Source: Byssovorax sp.
GTDB lineage: Bacteria; Myxococcota_A; Polyangia; Polyangiales; Polyangiaceae
NCBI GenBank assembly: GCA_025362495.1
Contig: JANYGI010000026.1
Location: 66,118-130,117 of the forward strand
Direction of reading: 5' to 3'
DNA: 64,000 nucleotides
Part shown: in pieces, positions 6,423 through 52,768 of the stretch
How positions within the stretch are numbered: the first letter of the stretch is position 1
Layout of the letters: the number at the start of each line of letters is the position of its first letter
Program-made: the position numbers and the translations under genes
The notes under the pieces: model-generated
Database searches by the model: none
The model's input: only the letters and a program-made list of their open reading frames with translations
What the model was told of the DNA's origin: nothing

Positions 6423-7716
6423 TCCCCCGACGCCGGCCGCCACGTCGTCGTCCGGCGGCGCGCCGATGCCGCCGCCCTCGGCCAGCCAGGTCGCTCCCGC
6501 GGAGTCGGCGACGCCCGCGCCCACCGCCTCGACGCCGCCCGTCGCTCCGCCCGCCGCCGGTGAGCTCGGCGCGCTCGCGAAGAGCAACAACGCTCTCGCG
6601 ATCGATCTCTACGGCAAGGCGCGCGCGCAGGCCGGCAACCTCGCGCTGTCGCCGATCAGCATCTCGACGGCGCTGACGATGACGTGGGGCGGCGCGAAGG
6701 GCGAGACCGCCGCGCAGATGAAGAAGGTGCTCCACGCCGAGGGCGAGCCGACCGCGGCGATGGACGTCTCGGGAAAGCTGCTCGCGAGCTTCGGCAACGA
6801 CGGCAACAAGGTCACCCTGCGCGTGGCCAACCGCCTCTTCGGCGAGAAGACGTACGCCTTCGAGCAGAGCTACCTCGATCGCACCAAGGCCGCGTTCGGC
6901 GCGCCGCTCGAAGCCCTCGATTTCAAGCACGCGGCCGATCCGTCGCGCGTCCACATCAACGAGTGGGTCGCGAAGCAGACCCAGGATCGGATCAAGGATC
7001 TCATCCCGAGCGGCGCCCTCACCATCGACACGCGGCTCGTGCTCACCAACGCCATCTACTTCCTCGGCGACTGGATGGAGCCGTTCGCGAAAGAGCAGAC
7101 GCGCCCCGCGGCGTTCCACGCGACCGCGAGCGCGACGAGCGACGTGCCGACGATGAACCAGGCGGCGCACTTCCGCTTCGCGGCGACCGATGGCGTGAAG
7201 GTCCTCGAGATGCCTTACCAGGGCGGCGAGGTGGCGATGGACTTCGTCCTGCCGGACGCGCCCGCGGGCCTCGACGCGGTGGAGAAGCGCCTCTCGACGG
7301 CGACCTTCGACGCGTGGATCGGCGCGATGAAGTTCGACCAGGTGAACGTCGCGCTGCCGAAGTTCGAGATCAACCCGGCGGCGTCGCTCTCGCTCGGCGA
7401 CACGCTGAAAGAGCTCGGGATGCCGCTCGCGTTCGACAAGGACAAGGCCGACTTCACCGGGATGGCCAACCCGCCGAGCCCGGCCGATCGGCTCTACATC
7501 AGCAAGGTCTTCCACAAGGCCTTCGTGAAGCTCGACGAGAAGGGGACCGAGGCCGCCGCGGCGACCGCCGTGGTGATGGCGCGCGCCGGCGCCGCCGCGC
7601 CGACTCAGCCGCCCTCGGTGTTCAAGGCCGACCACCCGTTCCTGTTCGTGCTCCGCCACGTGAAGTCGGGCGCGATCCTGTTCATGGGCCGCGTCAGCGA
7701 TCCCGCGGCGAAGTAG
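6370..7716 (+). CDS. Serpin (serine protease inhibitor) lipoprotein, paralogue 1
   Basis: Lipoprotein signal MRSFAPLLSLACLLTAC. Serpin core motifs NAIYFLGDW, hinge EKGTEAAAATAVV and C-terminal FKADHPFLFVLRH. About 45 kDa. Confidence 0.85.
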   Translation: MRSFAPLLSLACLLTACDPPTPAATSSSGGAPMPPPSASQVAPAESATPAPTASTPPVAPPAAGELGALAKSNNALAIDLYGKARAQAGNLALSPISISTALTMTWGGAKGETAAQMKKVLHAEGEPTAAMDVSGKLLASFGNDGNKVTLRVANRLFGEKTYAFEQSYLDRTKAAFGAPLEALDFKHAADPSRVHINEWVAKQTQDRIKDLIPSGALTIDTRLVLTNAIYFLGDWMEPFAKEQTRPAAFHATASATSDVPTMNQAAHFRFAATDGVKVLEMPYQGGEVAMDFVLPDAPAGLDAVEKRLSTATFDAWIGAMKFDQVNVALPKFEINPAASLSLGDTLKELGMPLAFDKDKADFTGMANPPSPADRLYISKVFHKAFVKLDEKGTEAAAATAVVMARAGAAAPTQPPSVFKADHPFLFVLRHVKSGAILFMGRVSDPAAK

Positions 7717-7819
7717 CCCCGCCGCGGCGATCGCGCCGATCGCGCCTCGCGGCGCCGAGATCGTCGCGGTCGCCGTGTCCCGTTCTCCCTCCCCAGCCAC
7801 CGACGAGAGACCCCTGCGC

Positions 7820-9169
7820 ATGCGCTTGCTCGCTTCGATTTTCCCTTTCGCGATCGTCGGCGCGGGGTGCAATCCGCCGCCGTCGACCGCGTCGACCGCG
7901 TCCGCCGAGGCGACGACGCCGTCCGCCGCGACGCGACCGCCGATCGTCTTCGCCACCACGCGCGCGCTCGCGCCGGTGAAGCCCGCACCGCGCGTCGATG
8001 CGCCCACGGACGCCGAGATCGCGGTGTTCGCGAAGAGCAACAACGCGTTCGGGCTCGATCTGTACGGGAAGGCGCGCGCGCAGGCCGGGAACGTGGCGAT
8101 CGCGCCGATCAGCGTCACGTCGGCGCTGACGATGACGTGGGGCGGGGCGCGCGGCGAGACCGCGGCGCAGATGAAGAAGGTGCTCCACGCCGAGGGCGAC
8201 GCGGGGCCCGCGATGGACGTCGCCGGGAAGCTTGTCGGGAGCTTCGGCAACGACGGCAACAAGGTGACGTTGCGCGTCGCCAACCGCCTCTTCGGCGAGA
8301 AGACGTACGCGTTCGATCCGGCCTACCTCGATCACACCAGGGCCGCGTTCGGGGCGCCGCTCGAAAGCCTCGACTTCAAGGGGGCGTTCGAGGCGAGCCG
8401 CGGGCACATCAACGACTGGGTCGCGGGGCAGACGCAGGATCGGATCAAGGAGCTGCTGCCCGCGGGCGCGCTCGACGCGGACACCAGCCTCGTGCTCACG
8501 AACGCCATCTATTTCCTCGGCGCGTGGGCCTCGCCGTTCGCGATCGCGGCGACGCGCCCGGCGCCGTTCCACGCGACCGCGAAGGCCGCGAGCGACGTGC
8601 CGACGATGAGCCAGACCGAGCAGTTTCGATTCGCGGCGACCGACGGCGTGCGGGTGCTCGAGATGCCGTACGCGGGCGGCGACGTGGCGATGACGTTCGT
8701 CTTGCCGGACGCGCCCGACGGGCTCGACGCCGTGGAGAAGCGGCTCTCGACGGCGACGATCGACGCGTGGACGAGCGCGCTGAAGCCCGATCGCGTGGCG
8801 GTCGCGCTACCGAAATTCGAGATCGCCCCGGCGGCGTCGCTCGCTCTCGGCGGCGCGCTGCAAGAGCTCGGCATGCCGATCGCGTTCGACAAGAGCAAGG
8901 CTGATTTCAGCGGCATGATCAACGCGAAGAGCCCCGCCGATCGGCTCTTCATCAGCAAGGTCTTCCACAAGGCCTTCGTGAAGCTCGACGAGAAGGGGAC
9001 CGAGGCCGCCGCGGCCAGCGCGGTGGTGATGAGCGGGCCCGGCGGGGTCGCGCCGAGCGCGCCGCCGTCGGCGTTCAAGGCCGATCACCCGTTCCTGTTC
9101 CTGCTTCGCCACGTGAAATCGGGCGCGGTGCTCTTCATGGGCCGCGTCTCCGACCCTTCGAAGAAGTGA
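7820..9169 (+). CDS. Serpin lipoprotein, paralogue 2
   Basis: Start taken at MRLLASIFPFAIVGAGC (lipobox); an in-frame ATG also exists at 7775. Same serpin motifs as paralogue 1 but a different reactive-centre loop, VVMSGPGGVAPSAPPSAF. Confidence 0.85.
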   Translation: MRLLASIFPFAIVGAGCNPPPSTASTASAEATTPSAATRPPIVFATTRALAPVKPAPRVDAPTDAEIAVFAKSNNAFGLDLYGKARAQAGNVAIAPISVTSALTMTWGGARGETAAQMKKVLHAEGDAGPAMDVAGKLVGSFGNDGNKVTLRVANRLFGEKTYAFDPAYLDHTRAAFGAPLESLDFKGAFEASRGHINDWVAGQTQDRIKELLPAGALDADTSLVLTNAIYFLGAWASPFAIAATRPAPFHATAKAASDVPTMSQTEQFRFAATDGVRVLEMPYAGGDVAMTFVLPDAPDGLDAVEKRLSTATIDAWTSALKPDRVAVALPKFEIAPAASLALGGALQELGMPIAFDKSKADFSGMINAKSPADRLFISKVFHKAFVKLDEKGTEAAAASAVVMSGPGGVAPSAPPSAFKADHPFLFLLRHVKSGAVLFMGRVSDPSKK

Positions 9170-9212: not shown

Positions 9213-10502
9213 ATGGAAGAGGCTGTCGTGCACCTGCGATTGATTGTTTCGACTTGCGCCTTCGCGCTCCTCGGCGCTGCTTGCAGCGGCTCCCCCATCA
9301 CCCCCGCGACGGGGGGCGACGACGCCCACCCGCCGCCACCCGGCGCGGCCGACGTCGGCAGCTTCGCGAAGAGCAGCAACGCGCTCGGGCTCGATCTGTA
9401 CGCCAGGGCGCGCGCGCGGCCGGGGAACCTGGCGCTCTCGCCGATCAGCGTCGCCGCGGCGCTGACGATGACGTGGGGCGGGGCGCGCGGCGAGACCGCG
9501 GCGCAGATGAAGAAGGTGCTCCACGCCGAGGGCGAGTCGGGTCCGGCGATGGACGTCGCGGGCCAGCTCCTCGCGAGCTTCGGCGGCGAGGGCAGCAAGG
9601 TCACGCTGCGCGTGGCCAACCGCCTCTTCGGCGAGAAGACCTATGCCTTCGAGCAGGCCTATCTGGATCACACCAAGGCGGCCTTCGGAGCGCCCCTGGA
9701 GGCCCTGGATTTCAAGGGCAACGTCGAGCCCAGCCGCGTGCACATCAACGCCTGGGTGGCCGGCCAGACGCAGGATCGGATCAAGGATCTCATCCCCGCA
9801 GGCGGGGTCAGCGGCGACACCCGCCTCGTGCTCACCAACGCCATCTATTTTCTGGGGAACTGGATGTCGCCGTTCACGAAGGAGGCCACGCGCCCCGCGG
9901 CCTTCCACGTGACGGCGAGCGCGTCGCGCGACGTGCCGACGATGAACCAGGACGCGCGCCTTCGCTTCGCGGCGACCGACGGCGTGAAGGTCCTGGAGAT
10001 GCCGTACGAGGGCGGCGAAGTGGCGATGGACTTCGTGCTACCCGACGCGGCCGACGGGCTCGACGCGGTGGAGAAGCGGCTCTCGACCGCGGCGATCGAC
10101 GCCTGGATCGGCGCGATGAAGTCGGAGCACGTGGACGTCGCGCTGCCGAAGTTCGAGATCAACCCGGCGGCGTCGATCTCGCTCGGCGACACGCTGAGAG
10201 AGCTCGGGATGCCGCTCGCTTTCACGGCGGGCAAGGCCGACTTCACCGGGATGGCCAACCCGCCGATCGCCGCGGATCGGCTCTACCTCGACAAGGTCTT
10301 TCACAAGGCCTTCGTGAAGCTCGACGAGAAGGGCACCGAGGCGGCCGCGGCGACCGCGGTGGTGATCAACGTCGAGACCGCGATGGTCCCGAGCCCGTCG
10401 GTGACCTTCAAGGCCGATCACCCGTTCCTGTTCGTGCTCCGCCACCTGAAGTCGGGGGCGATCCTGTTCATGGGCCGCGTCAGCGATCCCGCGGCGAAGT
10501 AG
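9213..10502 (+). CDS. Serpin lipoprotein, paralogue 3
   Basis: Signal/lipobox CAFALLGAAC; a GTG at 9228 may be the true start. Serpin motifs conserved. Reactive-centre loop VVINVETAMVPSPSVTF differs from paralogues 1 and 2. Confidence 0.85.
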   Translation: MEEAVVHLRLIVSTCAFALLGAACSGSPITPATGGDDAHPPPPGAADVGSFAKSSNALGLDLYARARARPGNLALSPISVAAALTMTWGGARGETAAQMKKVLHAEGESGPAMDVAGQLLASFGGEGSKVTLRVANRLFGEKTYAFEQAYLDHTKAAFGAPLEALDFKGNVEPSRVHINAWVAGQTQDRIKDLIPAGGVSGDTRLVLTNAIYFLGNWMSPFTKEATRPAAFHVTASASRDVPTMNQDARLRFAATDGVKVLEMPYEGGEVAMDFVLPDAADGLDAVEKRLSTAAIDAWIGAMKSEHVDVALPKFEINPAASISLGDTLRELGMPLAFTAGKADFTGMANPPIAADRLYLDKVFHKAFVKLDEKGTEAAAATAVVINVETAMVPSPSVTFKADHPFLFVLRHLKSGAILFMGRVSDPAAK

Positions 10503-12385: not shown

Positions 12386-13531
12386 TCAGTCTCCGCCGAG
12401 CCTGATCCGCGCGCGGAGCATGAGCGCGCCGATCAGGTCCTCGTCGGCGTCGCTGCGCTGCGACCACCCGAGGGCCAGGTAACAGAGCAGCTCGCCGAGG
12501 GTGGTGCCGCTCGGCGTGACACGGCCGGGGCGCACGATCGCCAGCTGCTCGCCGTCCGCTGCGAGGCCCACGATCGCCTGCGTCGAGGACGCGCCCAGCG
12601 CCGAGCCCAGGATCCTCGCCACCGGGTAGAGGCCGGCGGCGGCGCCGCGCTCCCACGCGTCGTCGCTCTCGAGGGCCCGGAGCTCGGCCTCGCGGAGAAA
12701 CTGGAGCGTGCCTTCGATCGCGCCGATCGAGAGCTCGCGATAGCGGTCCGTCGGATCGCCGGGATCGACCCAGTCGTAGACGCTGACGAAGGCTGCGTGG
12801 CCTGCGGGCTGCGCGACGCCGCGGAGTGCTGGTGGCGCGGTGAATGCGCCACGGCCCGGGGTGCGGCGAAGCGCGCGCACGAGCCGGCGCGCCTCGTCGG
12901 CGATGGCCTCTGGCCCCGGCGCGATCAGCCGCACGTCGACGCGCCGCTCGGTGTCGAACAGCGCGCCCATCAGCGCCGGGAGCGCGGGCGCGCGGAGCTC
13001 GCTCGAGAGGAACGTCGAGCCGCGGTGCGGCCGGATCGCGGTGGCCTCGGCGGCGCGCTCCTCGGCGTCGGTCGCGTCGTCGTCGATCGCGATCGCGATC
13101 TCGTGCACCTCGCTGGCCTCGGCGCTCTCGACGCCGGCCTCGATCCCTTCCTCGCTCTCGCGCACGAAATGCCGCTGAAACGTGCCAGAAGCGAAGCTCC
13201 ACCCGTCGTCGTGGATCACGTCCTCCGCGAAGATCGCGCAGAGCACGCGCGCGTCGGGCGCGCCGAGCTCGGCGGCCGCGTCGATCACCCCGACCGCGGG
13301 CGAGACCTCGGCCTCGAAGAGCTCGACCAGGTGCTCGAGGTCCTCGCCGTCACGGCCGAGGCCGCTCGCGTAGAACGCGACCGAGTACCCGGGGACGCCG
13401 CGCAGCTCGGCGATCATCAGGTGCGGCGCGGGCACGTCGAAGCCGGCGAGCGCCACCGCGAAGCCCCGCGAGAGGGCTCGATCCGTGACCTCGGCGGGGC
13501 GAAACAGGAGCGCGGCGAAGGGAGAGGTCAT
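12386..13531 (-). CDS. Hypothetical protein
   Basis: Balanced amino-acid composition with high GC3. Start taken at MTSPFAALLF (cat at 13529-13531); the track ORF extends further upstream. No recognisable domain. Confidence 0.4.
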   Translation of the reverse strand: MTSPFAALLFRPAEVTDRALSRGFAVALAGFDVPAPHLMIAELRGVPGYSVAFYASGLGRDGEDLEHLVELFEAEVSPAVGVIDAAAELGAPDARVLCAIFAEDVIHDDGWSFASGTFQRHFVRESEEGIEAGVESAEASEVHEIAIAIDDDATDAEERAAEATAIRPHRGSTFLSSELRAPALPALMGALFDTERRVDVRLIAPGPEAIADEARRLVRALRRTPGRGAFTAPPALRGVAQPAGHAAFVSVYDWVDPGDPTDRYRELSIGAIEGTLQFLREAELRALESDDAWERGAAAGLYPVARILGSALGASSTQAIVGLAADGEQLAIVRPGRVTPSGTTLGELLCYLALGWSQRSDADEDLIGALMLRARIRLGGD

Positions 13532-13814
13532 CGCGGCAGAGGGTACGGCGAAGCCGTGGGCCGGTGTCAACAGCGAGGGGCCGACGCGCGAGGCCCGAGC
13601 CCGGTACGAAAGCATGAACGCAGCGCGCCGGCTGTGCATCCGATCGATCGACGAAGCGGTCGACGAGCGCTGGACGCGACACCGCCCGCGCCGAGGCACC
13701 ACGCGCGCGCCCACGCGGCCGAGGTCGCTCGATTTCGTCACTACGCCAGCACTGGCCTCGCCGCTCCGGCGGGGCTTCACCGGCGCGCGTCCGCGCACGC
13801 CAGGGAACCGATTC

Positions 13815-14723
13815 ATGAGCCATGTGTCCTCGAAGGGTCCGCCTCGCTGTTCGCCTCGCCGTCGCGCCTGGAGAGCGACATCGGCCTTCTCCGTGATCGC
13901 CGCGCTGGCGACGATCTTCGCGGCCTCCACCGCCGCCGCCGAGCCGCCGCCGTTGATGGGGTACGCGTCCGGATCCTGGCCGCCACCCACGCGTTTCGAC
14001 GGCTCGATCGAGGTGCAGATCGAGGCACCGACGCGGCCGCCCCCGGACGCGGTGACGCCGGCCCCGAAGGACGCGAGCTCGCCGAGCTTCGACCTCGGCT
14101 GCGCGACCGAGGTCCCCTTGATGGTCGGGGGCCAGCTGACGCTGGAGCTGCCGTATCGGATCTTGCTGCAGGGCGAGGTCGGCGTGCTCCCAGCGGCCTA
14201 TGTCAACGGGATCGACAGCGTGCTCGTCGGCAGCGGCGCCTATGACGCGACGACGTCGTCGCTGGTCCGCAGCACGCTGCAGAGCTCGCTCGTCGTCCGC
14301 GCCTCGGCGGGGTTTCGCCCCTTCACCGATCACGGCCTCGAGATCATGGGCGGCTACACGCTGACCTCGCTCGGCGGCGGCGTGAGCGCGCGCTCCGCCG
14401 TCGAGGCCGCCGCCGGCCTGACGATCCCCGCCGAGATCCCCGACGCGCAGATCCAGCTCAAGACCACCATCCACAGCGTCCACGCGTCGGTCGGGTGGCG
14501 CTGGATCGTGGGCGATCACTTCGTGGTGCGCGCGTCGCTCGCGTACCTCCAGGCCGTGGGATCGTCGTCGAGCCTCGCCGTGCCCGCGTCGATCTCGGCG
14601 GTCCCGGGCGCGGCCGCGCGTGTCGCGCAGGTGAGCCAGGCCATCGACTCGACGCTGAACACCAGCTTCACGAGGTACGCCAAGATGCCGGTGATGGGCC
14701 TCTCGCTGGGGTATCGCTTCTAG
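13815..14723 (+). CDS. Secreted hypothetical protein, possibly an outer-membrane beta-barrel
   Basis: Signal peptide RRRAWRATSAFSVIAALATIFAASTAAAEP. Alternating Ser/Gly/Val-rich strands and a terminal GYRF aromatic residue as in OM beta-barrels. Confidence 0.45.
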   Translation: MSHVSSKGPPRCSPRRRAWRATSAFSVIAALATIFAASTAAAEPPPLMGYASGSWPPPTRFDGSIEVQIEAPTRPPPDAVTPAPKDASSPSFDLGCATEVPLMVGGQLTLELPYRILLQGEVGVLPAAYVNGIDSVLVGSGAYDATTSSLVRSTLQSSLVVRASAGFRPFTDHGLEIMGGYTLTSLGGGVSARSAVEAAAGLTIPAEIPDAQIQLKTTIHSVHASVGWRWIVGDHFVVRASLAYLQAVGSSSSLAVPASISAVPGAAARVAQVSQAIDSTLNTSFTRYAKMPVMGLSLGYRF

Positions 14724-15796: not shown

Positions 15797-17347
15797 TCAA
15801 CGCTTCTTGCTCTTCCAGACCTCGTCGATCCAGGCCTCCACGTCGTCGACCTGGCTCGGGATGTGGGAAGAGAGGTTATCGTAACCCTTCTTCGTCACCA
15901 CGATGTCGTCCTCGATCCGCACGCCGATACCGCGGTACTGCTCGGGCACGGTGAGATCGTTCTCCTGGAAATAAAGGCCCGGCTCGACGGTGAGCACCAT
16001 CCCGACCTCGAGCTTGCCGAACTTGTAGACCTCGGAGCGGGCCTGGGCGCAGTCGTGGACGTCGAGCCCGAGCATGTGGCTCACGTTGTGGAGCGAGTAC
16101 CGCTTGTAAAACTGGTGCTCCTCCTTCAGCGCCTCGGCCGCGGTGGTCTTGAGGATCCCGAGCGACTCCAGCCCTTCGGCCAGGACCTTCATCGCGGCGC
16201 GGTTCGGCTCCATGAAGTCGTTGCCCGGCTTCACCGCCTTGAACGCGGCCTTCTGGGCCCGGTAAACCAGCTTGTAGATCGTCCGCTGCTCCTTCGAGAA
16301 GCGGCCCTTGATCGGGAGCGTCCGGGTGATGTCGGCGGTGTAGAGCGAGTTGCCCTCGACCCCGGCGTCGAGCAACAAGAGCTCTCCTTTGTGGAGCGTA
16401 CCGTCGTTCTTCGTCCAGTGGAGCACGCAGGCGTGCGGGCCTGAAGCGGCGATGGTGCCATAGCCGACGTCGTTGCCCTCGATCCGCGCGCGGAGGTTGA
16501 AGATGCCCTCGACCTCGCGCTCGCTCTTCGCCTTGCGGAGGCCACGGATCACGTCCTCGAAGCCGCGCTTGGTCGAGTCGATCACGGCGCGGAGCTCGCC
16601 AATCTCGGCCTCGTCCTTGATCAACCGCATCTCCGCGAGCGAGGCGGCGAGCTGCTTGTCGCGGTCGCCCACGGCGAGCGCGTCGTCGACCTTGTGCGAG
16701 AAGCCACGGAGCACGCAGCGCTTCCGCTCGGCGTCGCCGGCCAGCGTCTCCAGGAGACCCTTCAAATCAGGGAGGCCCTGGCACTCGTGGACGCCGAAGC
16801 GGACCAGGCTCTCCGGCACGCCGAGGCGCGGCCCGACCCAGAGCTCGCCCTTGATCCGATCGGTGAAGAAGGTGGCGTCGGCGCGGCCGGGGTTGGGCTC
16901 GACATAAAGCACGTCGGTGTGGCCGTCCGCTGTCGGGACCATCACCAGCACGCAGTCGGGCTCGAGGTTGCCAGTGAGATAGTAGAAGTCGGTCGCGGGG
17001 CGAAAGCGATAATGGGTGTCGTTTGACCGGACCTTCTCGTGGCCGGTGGGGATGATCAGCGTCTCGCCCCGGAAAAGCTTCGACAGCGCGCGTCGGCGTC
17101 GCTCGAAATCGGCAACGTTGGTGAGTGGGTCGCTCGGCGCCGTCGGGCCCGCGCCCCACTCCGTCACCATGAAGTCGAGCAGCGCTTTCGGAGGCGGGGT
17201 GTCGTGCGACGCTGGGGGAGCCGCCGGCGCGCCCGGATCCGCGGAAATTTGCGGTGTCTCTGCGGCCGGAGCGGAGTGGGCGGCGCTTTCGTCGTTGAGC
17301 TGGTTCATGGCGATCCGCGATACTTTACCAATCGCGCGCCTTTGCAA
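15797..17347 (-). CDS. pepP: Xaa-Pro aminopeptidase (M24B)
   Basis: AMP_N region FRPATDFYYLTG and M24 metal ligands HNVSHMLGLDVHD and VEPGLYF...GIGVRIEDD. A roughly 70-aa Pro/Ala-rich N-terminal extension is present; an alternative start exists at 17308 (MNQLND). Confidence 0.85.
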   Translation of the reverse strand: MQRRAIGKVSRIAMNQLNDESAAHSAPAAETPQISADPGAPAAPPASHDTPPPKALLDFMVTEWGAGPTAPSDPLTNVADFERRRRALSKLFRGETLIIPTGHEKVRSNDTHYRFRPATDFYYLTGNLEPDCVLVMVPTADGHTDVLYVEPNPGRADATFFTDRIKGELWVGPRLGVPESLVRFGVHECQGLPDLKGLLETLAGDAERKRCVLRGFSHKVDDALAVGDRDKQLAASLAEMRLIKDEAEIGELRAVIDSTKRGFEDVIRGLRKAKSEREVEGIFNLRARIEGNDVGYGTIAASGPHACVLHWTKNDGTLHKGELLLLDAGVEGNSLYTADITRTLPIKGRFSKEQRTIYKLVYRAQKAAFKAVKPGNDFMEPNRAAMKVLAEGLESLGILKTTAAEALKEEHQFYKRYSLHNVSHMLGLDVHDCAQARSEVYKFGKLEVGMVLTVEPGLYFQENDLTVPEQYRGIGVRIEDDIVVTKKGYDNLSSHIPSQVDDVEAWIDEVWKSKKR

Positions 17348-17446
17348 GGGGTTTCACGGGCGAGCAAGACGCCGCCCCGGGGCATCGCGCTCGTGTAGGA
17401 TGCGGGCCGGCGGCGGGCTGGGCCCCGCACGAGAGGCAGCGCGGCG

Positions 17447-19762
17447 ATGCGGAGCGCGTGGATTCGAGGCGTGGGGTTCTTCGGCGCGGTGGTGTCGCTC
17501 GCCGCGGCTTGCTCCGTGGGGGTCGAGCCGCCTCCCGGCGTCGACGGCCCGGGTAGCCGGCTTCTCCAGATCACCATCGGCGGTGGCAGCAACATCGACG
17601 CCGGCGCCCCGCTGCCCGGCGTCGGCGGAGCCTTCTCCGGCAGCGGCGGGAGCGCGCAGTCGAGCTCGAGCTCGAGCAGCGTCGGCGTCGGCGTGGGCGT
17701 GGGCGGGGCGCCGACGAGCGGCGCGTCGTCGAGCTCGAGCAGCGTCGGCGTGGGCGGGGCGCCGACGAGCGGCGCGTCGTCGAGCTCGAGCAGCGTCGGC
17801 GTGGGCGGCGCGCCGACGAGCGGCGCGTCGTCGAGCGCCTCGTCAACGACGTCAACGACGTCGACCAGCGGCGCGTCGTCGAGCTCCACCGGCATCATGA
17901 CGACGTTGCCCAGCGGCGCGCCCTGCGTCGCGAACGGCGACTGCCAGTCGGTGAGCTGCGTCGACGGTGTCTGCTGCAACGGCGCCTGCGCCGGGACGTG
18001 CGTCGCGTGCTCGGCCGCGAAGAAGGGCGGCGGCCCCGACGGCGTGTGCGGCTCGATCGCCGTGGGGCTCGATCCCGACAGCGAGTGCGCCGTGCAAGGC
18101 GGCTGCGGCATGACGGGGGCTTGCAGCGGCTCGCCGTCGTGCGCGCTGGCCCCCGCGACGACGTCGTGCGCGAGCTGCGCTGCGACGGAGGGCTACGTCT
18201 ACCCGAGCCTCTGCGACGGCTCCGGCGCCTGCGTGCTGCCGCAGCCGGCGTCGTGCGGCTTCTACCGGTGCGCCGCGGCGGCGTGCCTGACGACGTGCCA
18301 GGCCGACACCGACTGCATCTCGACGGCGCATTGCCTCGGCGGCACGTGCCAGAAGAAGGCCCCGCAGGGCAGCGCATGCACCGGCAACAGCGCCTGCTCG
18401 GGGGGCCTGTCGTGCGTCGACGGCGTCTGCTGCGACTCCGCGTGCGCGGGCTCGTGCATGGCCTGCACGAACGCGAAGACGGGCAGCGGCGCCGACGGGG
18501 TCTGCGCCAACATCGCCGCCGCGACCGATCCCGACGGCGAGTGCCCGGATCCGGCGCCGCAATCGCCGTGTGCGGCGCCCGGCGTCTGCAATGGAAACGG
18601 CGCGTGCGCGCCGCCCGCGCCCGCGAACGTGCCCTGCGGCAACGGCTCGTGCTCGGGCAACCCGGGGACGGCGTTCGGCCCGTCGGCGTGCGACGGCCTC
18701 GGCGTGTGCACCCCGGGGATCACCACGGCGTGCACCGGGCCCTGCAACGGGACGATCTGCCAGAAGGGCTGCATGAACGACGCGCAGTGCCCCTCGACCG
18801 AGTACTGCGCGGGCATGATGTGCGCGCCGAAGAAAGGACTCGGGATCCCCTGCGGCGGCGCGGTCGAATGCTCGGTCGGCTACTGCGTGCAGGGGGTGTG
18901 CTGCGACTCGGCCTGCAACACCGGCGGCGCCTGCCAGACCTGCCTCAAGACGGCCGGCGTGCCGAACGACGGGACCTGCACGCTGCTGAACGGCAAGCTG
19001 CCGGGCTACCCGTGCGACGACGGCAAGCAATGCACCGACGACGCGTGCGGCGGAGGAGCCTGCGTGCACCCCGCGGTGGTGTGCGCTGCGCCGGGCCCGT
19101 GCATGGAGCCCGGCGTCTGCGACGACGCGACCGGGGCGTGCACCAGCGCGCCGACGACGTGCCCGGGAGCCGCGCTGTGCAAGCTCGCGAGCACCTGCGA
19201 TCCGACGACGGGTCAGTGCGCGGAGCCGGGCGCGATCAGCTGCCCCGCGCCGAGCGACGCGTGCCACATGGCCTCGGCGTGTGACGAGAGCACCGGGAAA
19301 TGCCTCGCCGAGCAGCCGGTGACGTGCCCCGTCGGCGGCCTCGCCGATTGCCTCACGCGCGTGTGCGACGTCACCGCGACCAACGGCCCGTGCGTCGTCC
19401 GATCGAGCCTCGACGGCGTCGCGTGCCACGCGGGCGCGCAGGCGGGGATCTGCCTCGCCGGGAGCTGCTTCACGGTGACCGGCATCGAGGGAACCGGCGG
19501 CGGCGCCGGCGGCGTCGCGGCGACGAGCAGCAACGCGACCGGGGCGAGCGCGGCGACGGGCGCCGTGGGCGTCGGCGGCGAGGGCGGCGGCGGCGCCTTC
19601 CACTTCGCGGGCGGAGCGTGCAACATCGTCAACATGGGTAAATCAAGCCTCGAAGGCGAAGTCGGGCGCGCGGCGTGGCTCCTCGCGGCGGCGCTGTTCG
19701 CGGCGCGTCGACGCGCGGCGCGCGCGGGGCTCACGGCGCGGCGAGGGTCGCGCGATGCGTGA
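17447..19762 (+). CDS. Cysteine-rich repeat surface lipoprotein with a MYXO-CTERM sorting tail
   Basis: Lipoprotein signal VVSLAAACS, a Gly/Ser linker with [18 protein letters not shown] x3, and more than 15 Cys-rich repeats of the form CxxGxC...C.DGVCC..AC.G.C.AC (TIGR02232-like). C-terminus GGACNIVN...[18 protein letters not shown] matches the MYXO-CTERM pattern. Confidence 0.8.
17677..17845. repeat. Near-perfect 51-bp tandem repeat (about 3.3 copies) inside the MYXO-CTERM gene
   Basis: The unit agcgtcggcgtgggcggggcgccgacgagcggcgcgtcgtcgagctcgagc is repeated in frame, encoding [17 protein letters not shown]. Confidence 0.7.
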
Positions 19763-20993
19763 GCGACGGGCCGCCGTCGCGGCCATCCTCGTGGTGTTCG
19801 CCGCGATCCTGCCCGCGTCGGCGCGCGCGCAGACGTTCGGCGGCATCGCGCTCGACAAGCTCGATCCGGCGCCTCCCGGCGACACGTTCACGGCGGTGCC
19901 GTCGCCGTTCGCCGCAGGGCACCTCGTCCCGCGCGGCCTCGCGCTCTTCGACTACGCGGCGCGCCCGCTCACGCTGGTGACGGCGTCGTCGTCGCGCCCC
20001 GTCGTCAGCGGCCAGGGCTTCCTCCACCTCGGCGCGTCGCTCGCGCTCTGGGATCGGCTCCTGCTCTCGGTGTCGCTGCCGATCGCGCTGGTGCAGAGCG
20101 GCGACGCGCCCACGGCCGGGCGCTTCACGTTCACGGCGCCGTCGTCGGCGCAGGTCGGTGATCTCCGCCTCGGCGCGCGGATCCGCGTCGCCGGCGACGA
20201 CGGCGGCCCGATCCAGCTCGGCGGCTCGGTCGACGTTCACGCGCCGACCGCGCCCGCGGGATCGTTCGCGGGTGAGCGCGCCGCCCGCCTCGCGCCGCGC
20301 CTGCTCGTGGGCGGCACGGTCGATCGCTTCGTGTGGACGGCGGCGGCCGGCTTCGACTTTCACGGCGATCCCAACCCGTCGACGTTCGCCTGGGGCGCGG
20401 CCGCCGGCGCGCGGCTCGGCGGCGATCGCGCGCAGCTCGGCGTGGAGATCACCGGCGCGACGCCGCTCTCGGCCTCGTTCTTCGATCTCGATCCGCAGAC
20501 GCGCGTGGCCCGCGGGCTGGTCTCCAGCGTCGAGCTCGCGATCGGCGGCAAGGTGCGCGTCGTCAGCCACCTGTTCTTCACCGTCGGCGCCGGCCCGGGG
20601 CTCACCGACGCCGTCGGAACGCCGACGTTCCGCGCTCTCGGCGGCCTCGCGTGGTCGCCGCCGGGGCCTTCGGTCGTCGCCGCGAACGAGGCCGCGCCCG
20701 ACGACACCGACGCCGATGGGATCGCCGATCGCGACGACGCGTGCCCCTACGCTCACGGCGTGAAGAGCGCCGATCGTCGGCGAAATGGCTGCCCGGTGCT
20801 CGACGCCGACGACGACGGGATCGACGATCGCGACGACGCGTGCCCCGCGCGCGCCGGCGTGAAGAGCGCCGACACGAAGCAGAACGGCTGCCCCGCCGAC
20901 ACCGACGGCGATGGCGTGCCCGACGGCCTCGACGGCTGCCCCACGGTCAAGGGCAGCGCCGCGACGAACGGCTGCCCGGCGCCTCCGAAATAG
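19755..20993 (+). CDS. Outer-membrane protein with C-terminal thrombospondin type-3 Ca-binding repeats
   Basis: Signal [12 protein letters not shown], beta-rich N-terminal domain, then three TSP3 repeats [30 protein letters not shown] and [15 protein letters not shown]. Its ATG overlaps the stop of the upstream gene by 8 nt. Confidence 0.7.
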
Positions 20994-20995
20994 CG

Positions 20996-22942
20996 TTACT
21001 TCGCGTGTCGAACGATCGCGCCGTCGGCCTTGTCGACGGAGCCTTCGTTGACCCAGAACACGGCGTCGGTCCCCACGACGATGGCCCCGGGGTTCCGCTG
21101 GTGGCTGGCGATCTCGGTGAGCGCGCCGCCCTTGAGGCGCATCACCGCGCCGCGCGTGCGGCTGGTCCAGTAGACGGCCGCGCCGTCGACCGCGATGCCG
21201 CCGGGATAGTCCTCGCCGTCGGCGAGACCCTTCGTCAAATCGGCGAGGCCGCTCCCGTCGGAGGACACCGAGAAGACGCCGCCGCCCGCGCTGTGATCAG
21301 CAAAGTTCGCGAAGTACACCGTCCCCGCGCCCGGGCTCCCGGCGGGGACGAGGGCGATCGCCCGCGGCGTGGACTGCATCTGCGCGACGGCGGTCGAGGT
21401 CGTCCCGTCGTTGCAGGCCACGACGCCGAGCTTGGATCCGAGCGTGTCCTCGTAGGTCCAGCAGCGGAGCCCGTTCGCGGCCACGACGCGACGGGGCGCG
21501 CCGGCGCTGGGGCTCGGCGCCATGAGCACCGTCGGCGGCGTTTTGTCGTAGGTCAGCATCATGTCGCTCACCGTGAGCGGGACCTGCGAGACCTGGTTCG
21601 ACGTGAGGTCGGTCCACACCATCGTCAGGCCGTCGAGCGCGAGGCCTTCGGGTCGAGCGAGCATGGGGATCAGCGGCGCCGCCGCGGGCTTCGCGAGCGG
21701 CGAGCTCATGATCGCGTTGCCCGACGCGCTGGTCCAGAACGCGTAGCCCTTGCTCGCGCTGATCACCAGATCGTGCGGCGAGGCTTGATCCTTCGCGAGG
21801 ATCTCGGCCTCTCCGCCGGTGGTCAGCGCGCGCTTCACGGCGCCGTCGCTCCGCGGGTTGCTGTTGGCGTCGAAGGTGCCGCGCGTGGTCCAGTAGACGC
21901 GGCTCGTGCCGTTGATCTCCTCGAGGCCGAGCGCGACGGGGTTCTGCTGGCTCGACGCGACGACGAGGGGCGCGGTGGTGCTCGGCGCGACGTATTTCCC
22001 CGCCGACGAGAACGGCCCGCAGATCGGGAGCGAGGCCTGCTTGCGCGCGCACGGGCTCTTGCCCGCGGCGACGGTGACGACGGCGCCGAGGGCGTGGCTC
22101 TTGAGCTTCTCGCACACCGCGGGCGGGAGCCGGAGCGCGCCGTTCTTGTCCGGCTGCCAGCCGGCGTCGCTCTCGGCGTCGAGCGGCACGAAGCACCCGG
22201 ACGGCCCGCAGCTGCCCGCGCCTTGCGTCAGGAGCGCGACGTTGACGTCGTTGCCCGCCTGGATCGTGCAGTTGCCAGTGTTGACGTCGGCGATCGTCGC
22301 GTCGTCGAAGCAGCTCGCGGCGTCGAAGCAGTCGCCGTCCTGGTTGCCGGTGCCGCCGCCGAACACGAGGCCGCCGCTGTAGTCCGCGAGCGACACCTCG
22401 GGGAGATTGACGTCGACGCATTTGCCCGCCGAGCACGTCATCCCGTCGTCGCAGGTGCTCTTGAAAACGAGGTTGCCCTCCTTGTCGGTGATCGGCTTGC
22501 CGGTGGTCGCGTCGGTCACCACCACGGCCGTGCCGTCGCAGAGGAACTCGATCGGGATGGGCAGCGTCGCGGCGCGATCGGTCGGCACCGTGGTCACCAC
22601 TTCGCGGATCATCCGCGGGGATCCGTCGCCGTGCAGCGCGAGGACGCGCACGCGCACCGCGGCCCCGGGATCGGTCTTCGACGCCGTCAGCGCCAGCGTG
22701 GCGGGGAGCTTGAACGTGTGGTCCGGCTGGAGCGCGTCGTACTCGACGTTGAACTTCGACTCGCCCGACTTCGCCAGCGTGACGTCGACGATGATCCGAT
22801 CGACGTCCTTGGGGATGGCGATGTCGGTGCGGATCGCGATCACGATCTCGCCGACCGGCGCCGTGGAGCACGAGGAGACCAGGGGCAGCGCCGCGAGGAG
22901 CGCGAGCGTGCCGAGCGTGCCGTGGGATCGCATCGTTCTCAT
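20996..22942 (-). CDS. Lipoprotein, hypothetical (beta-propeller-like)
   Basis: Signal/lipobox LAALPLVSSCS. Cys-rich central region, recurring YWT/FWT/VYW motifs suggest a propeller fold. No catalytic motif seen. Confidence 0.55.
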   Translation of the reverse strand: MRTMRSHGTLGTLALLAALPLVSSCSTAPVGEIVIAIRTDIAIPKDVDRIIVDVTLAKSGESKFNVEYDALQPDHTFKLPATLALTASKTDPGAAVRVRVLALHGDGSPRMIREVVTTVPTDRAATLPIPIEFLCDGTAVVVTDATTGKPITDKEGNLVFKSTCDDGMTCSAGKCVDVNLPEVSLADYSGGLVFGGGTGNQDGDCFDAASCFDDATIADVNTGNCTIQAGNDVNVALLTQGAGSCGPSGCFVPLDAESDAGWQPDKNGALRLPPAVCEKLKSHALGAVVTVAAGKSPCARKQASLPICGPFSSAGKYVAPSTTAPLVVASSQQNPVALGLEEINGTSRVYWTTRGTFDANSNPRSDGAVKRALTTGGEAEILAKDQASPHDLVISASKGYAFWTSASGNAIMSSPLAKPAAAPLIPMLARPEGLALDGLTMVWTDLTSNQVSQVPLTVSDMMLTYDKTPPTVLMAPSPSAGAPRRVVAANGLRCWTYEDTLGSKLGVVACNDGTTSTAVAQMQSTPRAIALVPAGSPGAGTVYFANFADHSAGGGVFSVSSDGSGLADLTKGLADGEDYPGGIAVDGAAVYWTSRTRGAVMRLKGGALTEIASHQRNPGAIVVGTDAVFWVNEGSVDKADGAIVRHAK

Positions 22943-23925
22943 CGTCGACCTCCGAACGAGAGTGAATAGGTTCCGAGCGTGCCGTCGATGGTGGGCCGCG
23001 CCTCGGGCTTGAAGAGGAACGCGCCGCCGACGATCGCGCCGCCCACGAGGACCGCGCCGCCCGCGATCCAGAGCACTTTCGAGAGGTTCGAGGCCTTGGG
23101 AAGCGGGGCCAGCGTCACCAGGATTTCGCGCGATTTATCGTCCTGCACGAGCACCTCGGACTGGTAGATCGACATGCCCGGGGCCGTGACGCGGAGCGTG
23201 TGTCCGCCGCTCGGCAGGGCGCCGTCCCACTTGCCCTGCGCCACCGCCTTGCCGTCGACGGCGATCAGATCCGCGGGCCCGGCGGTGACGGCGACGCGGC
23301 CCTGATGGAGATCTTTCTCGAGGGTCGCGGTCAGCGTCAGCTCCGTCCCGCCAGCGACGTCGAGGGCGCGATCGAAGGGCTTCCAGCCCGCCTTTTGCAC
23401 GTGGATCTTGCGCTTGCCGAGGTCGAGCCACACCACGTTCGCGAGCGGCGACGTACCCACCGACGCGTCGTCGACGAGGATCTCCGCGCCGGGCTCCGTC
23501 ACCGTGACGCGGAGGGCGCTGACGAGCGGCTTCGCGGCCGCGGCGAGGTCGCTGGCTTCCTGGCGGTCGGCGGCCGAGATCACCGAGCCGGCCTCGACGA
23601 GATACCGATCGAGCGTGGTGAGGACGCGGGTGTAGTGGCGGAGGTTCTTCTCGCAGACGGCGATGTTCCAGAGCAGCCGACCGTCGTGCGACAGCTCGTA
23701 CACGCGCTGGAATTTGATCATCGCGTTCTGGTAGTCGCCGTCCTGGTAGAGCAATTTACCGGCCTCGTACTCGGCGCGGGCCATGCCCGTGAGCGACGCC
23801 GAGAGGGGCGCTGCGGCCGCGGCCCGCGCGGGCGCACCCTGCGCGAGCGCCGGCGCGGGCGTCGCCGCGAGGACCAGCGCGAGGCCCATCGCAGGGCGCC
23901 AGAATGATCTGTGGCTCGGTCGCAT
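22939..23925 (-). CDS. Secreted TPR-like plus PEGA-domain protein with C-terminal TM anchor
   Basis: Signal peptide, a TPR-like helical stretch (AEYEAGKLLYQDGDYQNAMIKFQRVYELS), two PEGA-like beta modules (PGAEILVDDASVGTSPL and TAGPADLIAVDGK) and TM VLWIAGGAVLVGGAIVGGAFLF. Overlaps the downstream gene by 4 nt. Confidence 0.6.
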   Translation of the reverse strand: MRPSHRSFWRPAMGLALVLAATPAPALAQGAPARAAAAAPLSASLTGMARAEYEAGKLLYQDGDYQNAMIKFQRVYELSHDGRLLWNIAVCEKNLRHYTRVLTTLDRYLVEAGSVISAADRQEASDLAAAAKPLVSALRVTVTEPGAEILVDDASVGTSPLANVVWLDLGKRKIHVQKAGWKPFDRALDVAGGTELTLTATLEKDLHQGRVAVTAGPADLIAVDGKAVAQGKWDGALPSGGHTLRVTAPGMSIYQSEVLVQDDKSREILVTLAPLPKASNLSKVLWIAGGAVLVGGAIVGGAFLFKPEARPTIDGTLGTYSLSFGGRR

Positions 23926-23941
23926 CGTCGAGCTTTCCTCG

Positions 23942-25468
23942 CTACTTGATCGTGACGTCGAACGGACTCTTCTTGACGGTCGCCGTGGGCGGCGGCGTGA
24001 CCGCGACGGGCGGCGGTGACGCGACCGTCGGGGGGCGCGCGACCGCGCTCGAGCTCGATCGCGGAGCGGCGCTCGATCGCGGCGCGGTGATCGCCGGCGG
24101 GAGCGCGGCGGAGACGGCCACGTCGGGGATGGGATCGACGGCCGGATCTCGCGTGGGCGCCGTGGTCGTGGGCGCCGCGGTCGCGGCGATCAGCGGTGAG
24201 GCGCTGGTCATCGTCGACGGCGGAGCTTGCCCGTGCGAGGCCGCGCCGCCGGGGCGCACCAGGGCGAAGATGCCGATCAGGACGCCGGCGACGCCCATCG
24301 CCGCGCCGGCGGCGACGAGGCGGCGATCGCGCGGCGCGGCCTGCTCCGCCGTGGTGTCGGCGACGCTGGTGATCGACGCGGCCGCCGTCGAGCTTCCGGG
24401 ATCGAGGCTGCTCGCGCCGCGCGCCGACGCCGCGCCCCGGAGAGCGCTCTCGGGCCCGAGCCCGGTGCTCATCGTCCGGACGATCCGTCGCGCCGCAGCG
24501 GCGGCCTCGGGGTAGCCGAAGGGCGCGATCGCCTCGGCGAGATCGGCAACCGAGGCGAAGCGGGCGTCCCGCTTTTTTTCGAAGCAACGGAACGTCGCCG
24601 CCTCGAGCCCGGAGGGCACGTCGCTCCGACGCTTCGAGAGCGCGATCGGCGTCTGCATGTTCACCGCGAGGACGAGATCCGGGTACGTCTCGCCGTCGAA
24701 CGGGATCACCCCGGCGAGCAGCTCGTAGAGGATCACGCCGAGCGACCAGATGTCGGAGCGCGCGTCGGCGTCGCGGGCCGATCGCATCTGCTCGGGCGAC
24801 ATGTACGCCGGCGATCCGAACACCGTCGTCGTCCCGGTGAGCTTCTTCGCCGGCGCGCCGTCGTCGGGCTCGATCGATTTAGAGATGCCGAAGTCGAGCA
24901 CTTTGATCGAGTCCGAGCCGTCGGGAGCGCGGGTCAAGAAGAGGTTCGCGGGCTTGAGATCGCGGTGAATGATCCCCGCGGCGTGGGCCTCGGCGATGGC
25001 CTCGCAGGCGTGGAGCAGGTACTCGACCGCGTCTTTCACGGGGAGGGCGCCGCGCCGGTGGACGATCTCCGAGAGATCGCTCCCTTCGAGGTAATCCATC
25101 ACCATGAAGGGCACGCCGTCCTCGGTCTCGCCGACGTCGATGACCCGGGCCACGTGCTCGCTGCGGAGGCGGACCAGAGCGCGCGCCTCGCGGAGGAAGC
25201 GCTCGACGGCCTCGTCGTTGATGACCTCGCGGCGCATCAGCTTCACAGCCACGCGCTGGCCGAGCTGGAGGTGCGTCGCGGCGATGACCACGCCCATGCC
25301 GCCTTCGCCGAGGACGCGCTCCACGCGGTACTTTCCGGCGAGCAGATCCCCCGACTTCGGAGCGTCGGGTGTCATTCGGGGGTTCTCCACGGGGATCGCG
25401 TCATGCCGCTCCAGGCTCGGTCGCTGCGGGGGGATGGTAGAGCGCCGGACGCCGCGATCGTTCGACAA
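23942..25468 (-). CDS. Ser/Thr protein kinase, membrane-anchored, with Pro-rich extracytoplasmic tail
   Basis: Kinase subdomains VLGEGGMGVV, AVK, HRDLKPANLFL, DFGISK, APE. A TM helix LVAAGAAMGVAGVLIGIFALV follows a Pro/Ala-rich linker. An alternative start exists at 25375 (MTPDAPK). Confidence 0.85.
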   Translation of the reverse strand: MSNDRGVRRSTIPPQRPSLERHDAIPVENPRMTPDAPKSGDLLAGKYRVERVLGEGGMGVVIAATHLQLGQRVAVKLMRREVINDEAVERFLREARALVRLRSEHVARVIDVGETEDGVPFMVMDYLEGSDLSEIVHRRGALPVKDAVEYLLHACEAIAEAHAAGIIHRDLKPANLFLTRAPDGSDSIKVLDFGISKSIEPDDGAPAKKLTGTTTVFGSPAYMSPEQMRSARDADARSDIWSLGVILYELLAGVIPFDGETYPDLVLAVNMQTPIALSKRRSDVPSGLEAATFRCFEKKRDARFASVADLAEAIAPFGYPEAAAAARRIVRTMSTGLGPESALRGAASARGASSLDPGSSTAAASITSVADTTAEQAAPRDRRLVAAGAAMGVAGVLIGIFALVRPGGAASHGQAPPSTMTSASPLIAATAAPTTTAPTRDPAVDPIPDVAVSAALPPAITAPRSSAAPRSSSSAVARPPTVASPPPVAVTPPPTATVKKSPFDVTIK

Positions 25469-36444: not shown

Positions 36445-38157
<1,713 letters not shown>

Positions 38158-38211
38158 TCACGGCGCCGCGCGCCGCATGAATCTTGGAATTCCCCCGCGA
38201 CGAACCGGAAA

Positions 38212-38517
38212 TCAGGAGGCGGCGGCCTCGGAGCGCGTGACGGCGAGGATGTCGTCCTCGCGGATCAGCATGTGCTCCTCGCCATCGAGCTTGACCTCGG
38301 TGCCGCTGTACTTGCCGAAGAGGACGACGTCGCCGACCTTGACGTCGACGGGGCGAACCTTGCCGTCCTTCAGCACCTTGCCGTTGCCCACGGCGACGAC
38401 GCGACCCTCGATCGGCTTCTCCTTCGCCGAGTCGGGGATGATGATCCCTCCCTTGGTCACGCTCTCGCCCTCGAGGCGCTTGATCACGATGCGGTCCTGC
38501 AGCGGCCTGATCTTCAT
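38212..38517 (-). CDS. groES: Co-chaperonin GroES (Cpn10)
   Basis: [35 protein letters not shown]...[17 protein letters not shown]. Start verified at 38517 with SD AAGGAAGAG upstream. Confidence 0.95.
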
Positions 38518-38640
38518 GGTGCTCTTCCTTTTCCGTGTGGCTGTTGCATCGATCCGGCCGCGGGGGAGGCCCCCCTCGCGCTCCTCGCCGCCACCGCCTT
38601 GGCTCGCCCCGGCCCGCGAACGGACCGAGCAGACAGGCGG

Positions 38641-38667
38641 CTGGCACTCGACCGGCTCGATGGCTAA
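38641..38667 (-). promoter_or_regulatory. CIRCE-like inverted repeat (putative HrcA operator) upstream of groES
   Basis: On the minus strand TTAGCCATC-N9-GAGTGCCAG matches the consensus TTAGCACTC-N9-GAGTGCTAA at 14 of 18 positions. It lies about 125 nt upstream of the groES ATG. Confidence 0.45.
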
Positions 38668-38832
38668 AACCGGGCGCAAAGTAAATCACAGGGGGAACGC
38701 GTCAAGGGCGCTGAAGGAATCGCGGATTCATTTCGAGTACGCTGGCGTTCGGCCGTCCGAGGTGCTACAAGGGGTCCCGTTCAGAGCGGCCGAGTACATT
38801 CCCGCAGCGTCGGCGGTCCCGTAAAAAAGAAG

Positions 38833-51949: not shown

Positions 51950-52768
51950 ATGACGAGGCAGAAGCACGTGCGGCACGACTCCACCAACCGTCTCCCCACC
52001 AACCCGTTCGCGGAGGTCGGCGCCAGCATCGCGCCGCCGAGCAACCGGCACAGCTCGCAGTTCGCGTTGCAACAGCTCGTGCGCACCGACGACCTCTCGG
52101 TCGTTTTCCAGCCGATCGTCACGCTCGCGACGATGAAGATCTTCGCCTACGAGGCCCTCGCGCGCTGCGCCGTGCCGGCGTTCTCGAACCCGATGGTGCT
52201 GTTCGAGCGCGCGGTCCGCGATCGCTGCTGCGGGCGCCTGGGCCGCGCCATCCGCGAGGCGGCGATCCCGCTCTGCGAGGGCGTCCCGGTCTTCATCAAC
52301 GTTCACCCGCACGAGCTGGAAGAGCGCTGGCTGGTGCAGCCGGACGATCCGCTCTACTTCCACGATCGCGTCGTCTACCTCGAGATCACCGAGGCCGTGC
52401 CGCTCACCCATTTCGAGCTCTGCCGCAGCGTGCTGAAAGACGTGCGGCGCCGGGCGGACGTGCGCCTCGTGGTCGACGATCTCGGCGCGGGCTACTCCAA
52501 CCTCAAGCACATCGCCGACCTCGAGCCGGCCATCGTCAAGCTCGATCGCAACCTGATAATCGATCTCGACCGGAGCAAGCGGCACCAGACGCTGGTCGCC
52601 GGCATCGTGCGCCTCTGCGCCGACCTCGGCGCCGAGGTCGTGGCCGAGGGCATCGAGACGATCGAGGAGCTCAAGGCCATCCGCGACACCGGCGTGCACT
52701 ACGTGCAAGGGTTCCTGCTGGCCCGGCCCGGCTTCCCTCTGCCCGCGCTGAACCGAATTTCGATCTGA
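51950..52768 (+). CDS. Stand-alone EAL-domain protein (putative c-di-GMP phosphodiesterase)
   Basis: EAL motifs YEALAR, VDDLGAGYSNL, EGIET and QGF. No GGDEF or sensor domain. Confidence 0.8.
   Translation: MTRQKHVRHDSTNRLPTNPFAEVGASIAPPSNRHSSQFALQQLVRTDDLSVVFQPIVTLATMKIFAYEALARCAVPAFSNPMVLFERAVRDRCCGRLGRAIREAAIPLCEGVPVFINVHPHELEERWLVQPDDPLYFHDRVVYLEITEAVPLTHFELCRSVLKDVRRRADVRLVVDDLGAGYSNLKHIADLEPAIVKLDRNLIIDLDRSKRHQTLVAGIVRLCADLGAEVVAEGIETIEELKAIRDTGVHYVQGFLLARPGFPLPALNRISI

Follow-up and report, generated by a model that had tools for sequence, protein, structure and literature searches.

The subject of this study is a pair of overlapping plus-strand genes at positions 17447-20993 of a 64,000-nucleotide (nt) stretch of Byssovorax DNA (the window, to which all coordinates refer). 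They encode a Cys-rich stalk protein of 771 amino acids (aa), here called A, and an outer-membrane barrel protein of 412 aa, here called B. The anatomy of the two proteins, the signals at the gene junction and the homology of the B barrel to TraB lead us to regard them, with moderate confidence in this reading as a whole, as a translationally coupled pair resembling the surface pair TraA/TraB of Myxococcus xanthus, in a paralogous and reduced version rather than as its ortholog. An earlier note on this DNA had captured the broad outline, and went astray over the repeat count, the profile families and the claimed rarity of the arrangement. It did not mention that A is hypervariable, that B is homologous to TraB or that B lacks an OmpA domain, nor the conserved linkage to genes for a PEGA-domain protein, a lipoprotein and a kinase.

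The gene pair and its resemblance to traA-traB

TraA and TraB are a surface receptor and a barrel produced from overlapping genes (PMC3325183, PMC12045341). The traA-traB overlap is 4 nt; TraA consists of a signal peptide, a head, a Cys-rich stalk and a MYXO-CTERM tag, and TraB of a barrel, TSP3 repeats and an OmpA domain (PMC3325183, PMC12045341, PMC6372800). Like this pair (families NF033759 and NF033763), the window genes are bicistronic with overlapping stop and start codons. A combines a signal peptide with a Cys-rich rod, a disordered segment and a Cys-helix-Arg tail; B has a signal peptide, a barrel homologous to the N-terminal domain of TraB, and TSP3 repeats; and in both pairs the first protein is polymorphic and the second conserved. 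The window pair differs in that the overlap measures 8 nt instead of 4, in that A carries a lipobox-like N-terminus followed by a 133-aa Gly/Ser tether, and in that B lacks OmpA and scores one tenth of the family cut-off. Both comparisons, of B with TraB and of A with TraA, were made through profile models and published descriptions. Sorangium and Minicystis have true traAB orthologs elsewhere (PMC6372800), so the window pair is a paralogous cassette. Its features, all on the plus strand, are as follows.

17447-19762, plus strand: gene A, Cys-rich stalk protein, 771 aa (from the open reading frame listing)
17447-17512, plus strand: signal peptide of A ending in a lipobox-like LAAAC, with Cys22 as the putative lipidated +1 residue
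17516-17914, plus strand: Gly/Ser-rich disordered tether, aa 24-156 (133 aa), 71% Gly, Ser, Ala or Thr, with a predicted local distance difference test score (pLDDT) below 50
17915-19477, plus strand: disulfide rod, aa 157-677, with three supermodules of ~150 aa, CX5-6C repeats and a C-terminal knob; 80 Cys
18053-18508, plus strand: extra segment of supermodule length, aa 203-354, only in the window's allele (a 152-residue gap in five of five orthologs)
19082-19324, plus strand: short CX5-6C repeats, aa 546-626, of varying copy number (53-76 residues gapped in orthologs)
19325-19477, plus strand: C-terminal knob, aa 627-677, C..R.CDV...C...S.LDG..C...GIC.AGSCF, conserved
19478-19594, plus strand: second flexible tether, aa 678-716, 82% Gly, Ser, Ala or Thr, low pLDDT
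19595-19714, plus strand: tripartite tail of MYXO-CTERM type, aa 717-756, with FHFAGGAC725, a 16-aa spacer, a 12-residue hydrophobic helix and RRR
19715-19762, plus strand: coupling region, the last 15 codons of A, with GAGGG at 19743-19747, the ATG of B at 19755 and the TGA of A at 19760-19762
19755-20993, plus strand: gene B, outer-membrane barrel protein, 412 aa (from the open reading frame listing), with a signal peptide (aa 1-25), a conserved segment (aa 26-57), a 12-stranded barrel (aa 58-300) and three TSP3 repeats (aa 315-408)

Third-position GC content marks both frames as strongly coding: it reaches 0.94 in A and 0.93 in B, in keeping with real genes in DNA of ~70% GC. The end of A shares 8 nt with the start of B, ATGCGTGA at 19755-19762, which bears out the stop/start overlap described earlier, and a GAGGG Shine-Dalgarno sequence lies 7 nt upstream of the B ATG, inside the coding sequence of A. 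The same 8-nt overlap is found at loci L001-L003 and L005 and at the distant L086. In the ortholog alignment, residues R766, G767, R769, D770 and A771 at the C-terminus of A are invariant because their codons hold the ribosome-binding site and start codon of B; these RG(S/A)RDA codons are kept even though the A orthologs are only 45-60% identical. The overlap and the conserved codons thus support the co-production of the two proteins that had been proposed. A promoter scan of 17200-21200 returned no promoter-like site, and a terminator scan of the same interval gave a single minus-strand match inside A, at about the chance rate and uninformative. Proteins identical to A (P0121) and to B are present in the public collection, and all relatives of the two belong to the Polyangiaceae (Byssovorax, Sorangium, Minicystis, Chondromyces and Polyangium).

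TraB (NF033763) is the only NCBIfam family that B matches, scoring 70 bits (E = 1e-19) where the cut-off is 700. Taken by itself, the barrel (aa 1-306) aligned to positions 43-296 of the TraB profile (E = 1.1e-8), again as the sole family match. It was modelled with a mean pLDDT of 89.9 as 12 strands of the FapF/COG4313 class. Sequence identity to channels of this class (PDB codes 5o65 and 4rl8) is 13-16%, and the Pfam family Phenol_MetA_deg (PF13557) scores 14.3 bits on B, below its cut-off of 22; none of this points to channel or secretion activity of B. Among the best-conserved parts of TraB-like barrels, including the distant barrels at L064, L069, L072, L074 and L078, is the segment that precedes the barrel, aa 26-57 of B (19830-19925), with the pattern PAP(A/P)GD.F..VPSP...GHLVPR. 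It may act as a plug or docking element.

The three TSP3 repeats of B that had been recognized earlier were confirmed with Pfam (TSP_3, PF02412; 33.2 bits against a threshold of 25) as three stretches, each with a Cys pair. No OmpA domain (PF00691) was found in B with Pfam: the protein ends after the third repeat, and the stop codon of a convergent gene follows 3 nt beyond. The 589 relatives of B fall into two forms, a short one of ~412 aa and a long one of 560-610 aa that carries an OmpA domain; these long paralogs reach 174-236 bits on the TraB model. Every B that is coupled to an A is without OmpA. Barrels with an even number of strands have their C-terminus on the periplasmic side. This topology and the analogy with TraB, whose TSP3 repeats join the barrel to a peptidoglycan-binding OmpA domain (PMC12045341), place the repeats of B probably in the periplasm and do not support the earlier view of them as a surface module for adhesion or matrix.

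Architecture and divergence of protein A

The signal peptide of A, read from the sequence as a basic n-region, a hydrophobic core and AAAC, is conserved in the orthologs. Residues A21, C22 and S23 are invariant across six orthologs, and a Cys occupies the lipobox site in the distant protein P0245 as well. The lipobox claimed in the earlier note reads A-A-A-C against the consensus [LVI][ASTVI][GAS]C: position -3 is Ala or Val instead of Leu, and A-x-A would suit signal peptidase I as well. That A is an N-terminal lipoprotein is plausible but unproven. By the rules of M. xanthus lipoprotein sorting, a Ser after Cys22 is not an inner-membrane retention signal. The combination of a lipobox with a C-terminal tag, which had been called unusual, recurs among homologs of the Polyangia family to which A belongs: a clear lipobox accompanies a MYXO-CTERM-like tail in P0154, P0172, P0214 and P0245, and a less certain LYAC/LYGC box does so in the P0122 group. 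The supplementary files of PMC11980579 hold no information on lipoprotein-type signal peptides among the MYXO-CTERM proteins of M. xanthus. The Gly/Ser spacer described before was found as the tether at aa 24-156; it contains a 51-nt tandem repeat at 17691-17836 (2.9 copies, 97% matches, detected with TRF), and its identity between orthologs is just 30-45%.

A contains 82 Cys residues, namely C22, 80 within aa 160-674, and C725. Since the number of rod Cys is even, C22 and C725 would be left unpaired and free for lipidation. More than 15 disulfide-type repeats had been claimed for this region, yet the motif quoted for them, C..DGVCC...C...C..C, is present in three copies (aa 171, 323 and 480). 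Each copy stands at the head of a supermodule of about 150-155 aa that contains ~20 Cys and is the true repeating unit of A. The same supermodule is the repeat unit of a large Polyangia protein family with 891 matches, most of whose members combine a lipobox-like N-terminus with varied domains (CBM3, RCC1, Kelch, FG-GAP, malectin, PA14).

With AlphaFold2, aa 150-500 of A were modelled at pLDDT 85-97 as strings of short β-hairpins, and the remainder at low confidence. No solved structure is significantly similar to this model, and a PDB sequence search with A was likewise empty. Pfam and NCBIfam returned no head domain for A, and the only Pfam signal was a weak match to DUF7107 (18.5-19.1 bits, below threshold). 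TIGR02232, the repeat family suggested in the earlier note, was the wrong one: this model, TIGR04201, the TraA model and TIGR03901 all gave no match at E ≤ 10 when run against the whole of A and three fragments, while positive controls were recovered by the same library of hidden Markov models (HMMs). A motif of TIGR02232 type is visible by eye in the partner protein at L064 and not in A.

The rod ends in the knob, which is 50-67% identical between orthologs, at the upper end of the range for the rod. It is followed by the second tether and by the tail. Residues F718 to G723, C725 and R754-756 of the tail are invariant in the alignment of six orthologs. Between Arg741 and Arg754 the hydrophobic stretch measures 12-13 residues, a short length for a permanent membrane anchor. 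The Cys-to-helix spacer of the window copy, at 16 aa, is a longer one, and the tag of TraA is similarly spaced (peptide in PMC11980579). A further 15 residues extend beyond the RRR cluster, and their presence is explained by the overlap with the start signals of B. Likeness to the MYXO-CTERM signals (TIGR03901) handled by MrtX/MrtC lies in the invariant Cys, the short helix and the Arg cluster, in the disordered segment that precedes the tail, in the N-terminal signal peptide on the same protein, and in the Polyangia host; the signature differs, being FHFAGG(A/G)C and not GCGC, as do the residues that follow the Arg cluster.

A diverges at about ten times the rate of its neighbours. The orthologs used for comparison were those at L001-L003 together with P0172 and P0214. 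Public gene calls shorten the former to 422 aa at L001 (6740-8008), 400 aa at L002 (6806-8008) and 251 aa at L003 (7253-8008), where the true length is ~555 aa, and over-extend an antisense M24 peptidase gene to 700 aa at L001 and 843 aa at L003 instead of ~500 aa. These wrong calls hide the true orthologs of A from a protein homolog search. When read through, the orthologs share the N-terminus M.SAWIR...AACS, the knob, the FHFAGG(A/G)C signature and the ending AARRR...RG(S/A)RDA.

L001 is the closest relative of the window. The flanking proteins of the two show 89-95% identity and B shows 92%, whereas A (window 17516-19477 against L001 6341-8008) reaches just 60% across the aligned columns and has 228 gap columns. 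The nonsynonymous divergence (dN) of A in this comparison is 0.34, against 0.03-0.07 for its neighbours. The synonymous divergence (dS) is 0.56-0.76 in the tether and rod and falls to a flank-like 0.19 at both ends of the gene, so that the middle of A reaches three to five times the flank value. This pattern suggests that conserved flanks enclose a middle part of A that is an old or imported allele, through allele replacement or long-lived polymorphism. In the window's allele, which also has ~54 aa of extra short repeats, the additional segment at aa 203-354 finds its best match in modules of non-orthologous proteins (P0154, 52%) and not in those of A itself; this foreign affinity points to module shuffling. 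High dN and module indels together fit an exposed, polymorphic surface protein.

Related cassettes and a proposed assembly

A scan for TraB-like barrel loci, which used a 12-sequence alignment and covered 77 genomic loci, showed that MYXO-CTERM proteins are repeatedly coupled or fused to such barrels. At L064, L072 and L078 the stop codon of a MYXO-CTERM protein overlaps the start of the barrel gene by 4 nt, as published for traA-traB; at L022 and L069 the two genes are separated by 14 and 116 nt. L074 (1-6273) and L079 (1-3684) are single-gene fusions, in which a large adhesin is followed by an internal MYXO-CTERM, a second signal-peptide-like segment and a TraB-like barrel, and the L079 fusion adds TSP3 and OmpA. 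None of the five TraB-like proteins scanned (L064, L069, L077, L078 and L079) reaches the TraB cut-off.

A known protein of the fused kind is MXAN_5598, which joins an adhesin, an internal MYXO-CTERM, a barrel and OmpA (PMC11980579). L074 and L079 are of this type, and the window presents the same order of surface protein, sorting tag and TraB-like barrel. It differs from MXAN_5598 in that the parts are separate, overlapping genes, in that the passenger is a Cys-rich rod and not a set of Ig-like repeats, and in that OmpA is missing. A homolog search with the 43-aa tag peptide of TraA (PMC11980579) found no TraA proteins, and our literature search brought up no account of this paralogous family, nor of a linkage between PEGA protein, lipoprotein and barrel. 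TraA/TraB is the only studied case of a MYXO-CTERM surface protein paired with a TraB-type barrel.

We propose the following assembly. A would be exported by Sec, and ~40 disulfides would form in the periplasm from the 80 rod Cys. The inner membrane would hold A through its C-terminal tail, Cys725 would be lipidated, and a Polyangia myxosortase of the MrtC type would remove the hydrophobic/RRR segment. With a second, N-terminal lipid probably on Cys22, two flexible tethers would fasten the rigid rod to the outer membrane. B would form a 12-stranded barrel in the same membrane, and its TSP3 tail would lie in the periplasm and bind calcium. The membrane-proximal knob of A is a candidate docking element and could sit on B in the way that AlphaFold has modelled TraA on TraB (PMC12045341). 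A TraB mutant without OmpA retains foci and adhesion and loses membrane exchange (PMC12045341). Because A is without a recognition head and B without OmpA, a device for adhesion or recognition appears more likely than one for membrane fusion.

This locus and its relatives show that the TraA/TraB arrangement recurs in Myxococcota as a cassette with interchangeable passengers, and that natural variants without the recognition head and the cell-wall anchor exist. The locus could serve as a natural test of which parts of TraAB are needed for docking and which for membrane fusion, and A is a candidate for a protein with both an N-terminal and a C-terminal lipid. As a fast-evolving surface locus with linkage to a kinase module, it may mark strain identity in the Polyangiaceae.

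Counter-evidence, alternative explanations and other genes

Several observations weigh against the proposed kinship with TraA/TraB. A has no PA14-like variable head, the corresponding region (aa 24-156) being the disordered tether, and no TIGR04201 repeats; its Cys modules belong to another family, and it is unmatched by the whole-protein TraA model, for which the cut-off is 750 bits. B falls far short of the TraB cut-off and lacks OmpA. In Polyangium, Minicystis, Sorangium and L082 the B orthogroup, defined at ≥45% identity, is present where A is not, so B can do without A. The window proteins scanned (64 kb of genome) include neither a CPBP protease nor a type II secretion gene, although as housekeeping genes they would be expected to lie elsewhere. 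Finally, the MYXO-CTERM model TIGR03901 gave no match at E ≤ 10 with the whole of window A or with its 64-aa tail. The earlier note had named failure of the HMMs as a sign that its assignment was wrong, and for window A they do fail. The same model, whose cut-off is 20 bits, scores 17.9 bits on P0172 and 17.5 bits on P0214, which are orthologs of A; as controls, the TraA tag gave 20.6 bits and homologs with canonical GCGC tails gave 16-23 bits. What survives of the MYXO-CTERM claim is the tripartite build and these sub-threshold ortholog scores. We therefore treat the tail as a divergent signal of MYXO-CTERM type by architecture and orthology, and not as a certified member of the family.

The strongest alternative starts from the operon at 20996-25468 on the minus strand, which is convergent on B and consists of three genes.

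20996-22942, minus strand: 648-aa lipoprotein, a probable YWTD-type propeller (faint Ldl_recept_b match on the L084 homolog)
22939-23925, minus strand: PEGA-domain protein (Pfam PEGA)
23942-25468, minus strand: Ser/Thr kinase of this neighbouring operon

Homologs of the lipoprotein and the PEGA protein flank the B orthogroup at ~30 loci in five genera (Sorangium, Chondromyces, Minicystis, Polyangium and Byssovorax), in convergent or divergent orientation and often with a kinase nearby. These loci are L007-L028, L060, L061, L073 and L082-L086, with or without A, and L082-L086 show the same neighbourhood as the window. The B orthogroup is linked more constantly to these two genes than to A, which is limited to the window clade, L084/L085 and L086 and is absent from L007, L082 and L083. 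B might accordingly serve an envelope module made up of the kinase, the PEGA protein and the propeller lipoprotein, with A as a lineage-specific, fast-evolving surface passenger inserted upstream, on the same transcript as B and with no complex between the two. The 12-nt gap that replaces the overlap between A and B at L084/L085 would fit this, as would the narrow distribution of the C-terminal region of A: a query with the knob and tail found only nine clusters among 1.84 billion representatives. Against it, the overlap and the ribosome-binding-site codons are conserved where A occurs, MYXO-CTERM proteins are repeatedly joined to TraB-like barrels elsewhere, and the five-gene neighbourhood stays intact even where the left flank differs, which suggests that A is part of the same unit. 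We judge this alternative to be unlikely, though it deserves to be taken seriously.

The same linkage allows a bolder extension of the TraAB-like reading, which we offer as speculation and to which we give little credence. A would be a headless rod with lipids on both Cys22 and Cys725 and with its specificity in the hypervariable modules, and contact would be relayed through B and its TSP3 repeats to the PEGA protein, the lipoprotein and the kinase. If so, the relay would amount to contact-dependent trans-envelope signalling in the Polyangiaceae, distinct from membrane exchange.

A second alternative makes B the dedicated translocator of A, in the manner of FapF or an autotransporter, with the tether or all of A passing through the barrel. 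The order of passenger and then barrel in the natural fusions and the long disordered N-terminal tether of A are compatible with it. A rod with ~40 disulfides formed in the periplasm, on the other hand, could not traverse a 12-stranded barrel; MYXO-CTERM proteins use type II secretion, and neither TraA nor TraB requires the other to reach the outer membrane (PMC11980579, PMC12045341); and a B orthogroup that exists without A is not what a dedicated translocator would predict. We consider this explanation distinctly improbable.

That the tail is a plain membrane anchor and A a periplasmic protein tethered to the inner membrane, as the silence of TIGR03901 on window A and the 15 residues after RRR might indicate, is the least credible alternative and very improbable, given a hydrophobic stretch that is short for a stable span and similar to that of the TraA tag, the invariant FHFAGG.C motif with its Cys, the ortholog scores on TIGR03901, and the account of the extra residues by the start signals of B.

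Several other genes of the window may be recorded. Three tandem genes on the plus strand (6370-7716, 7775-9169 and 9213-10502) have a lipobox-like N-terminus and a C-terminal serpin signature in common; the first matches Pfam Serpin with E = 2e-111, and the other two were judged by sequence similarity. An open reading frame of 412 aa at 13485-14723 (plus strand) gives a weak match to the outer-membrane β-barrel family TIGR04565 (14 bits, where the cut-off is 60); long antisense open reading frames overlap it, and a gene of ~300 aa is called at the homologous positions of L001-L003. A GroES/GroEL pair, judged by its GGM-repeat C-terminus, lies at 36445-38679 on the minus strand. The plus strand further encodes a lipoprotein with an FGE-sulfatase domain (50766-51815), an EAL-domain protein (51950-52768) and a HAMP-adenylate cyclase (58198-59919).

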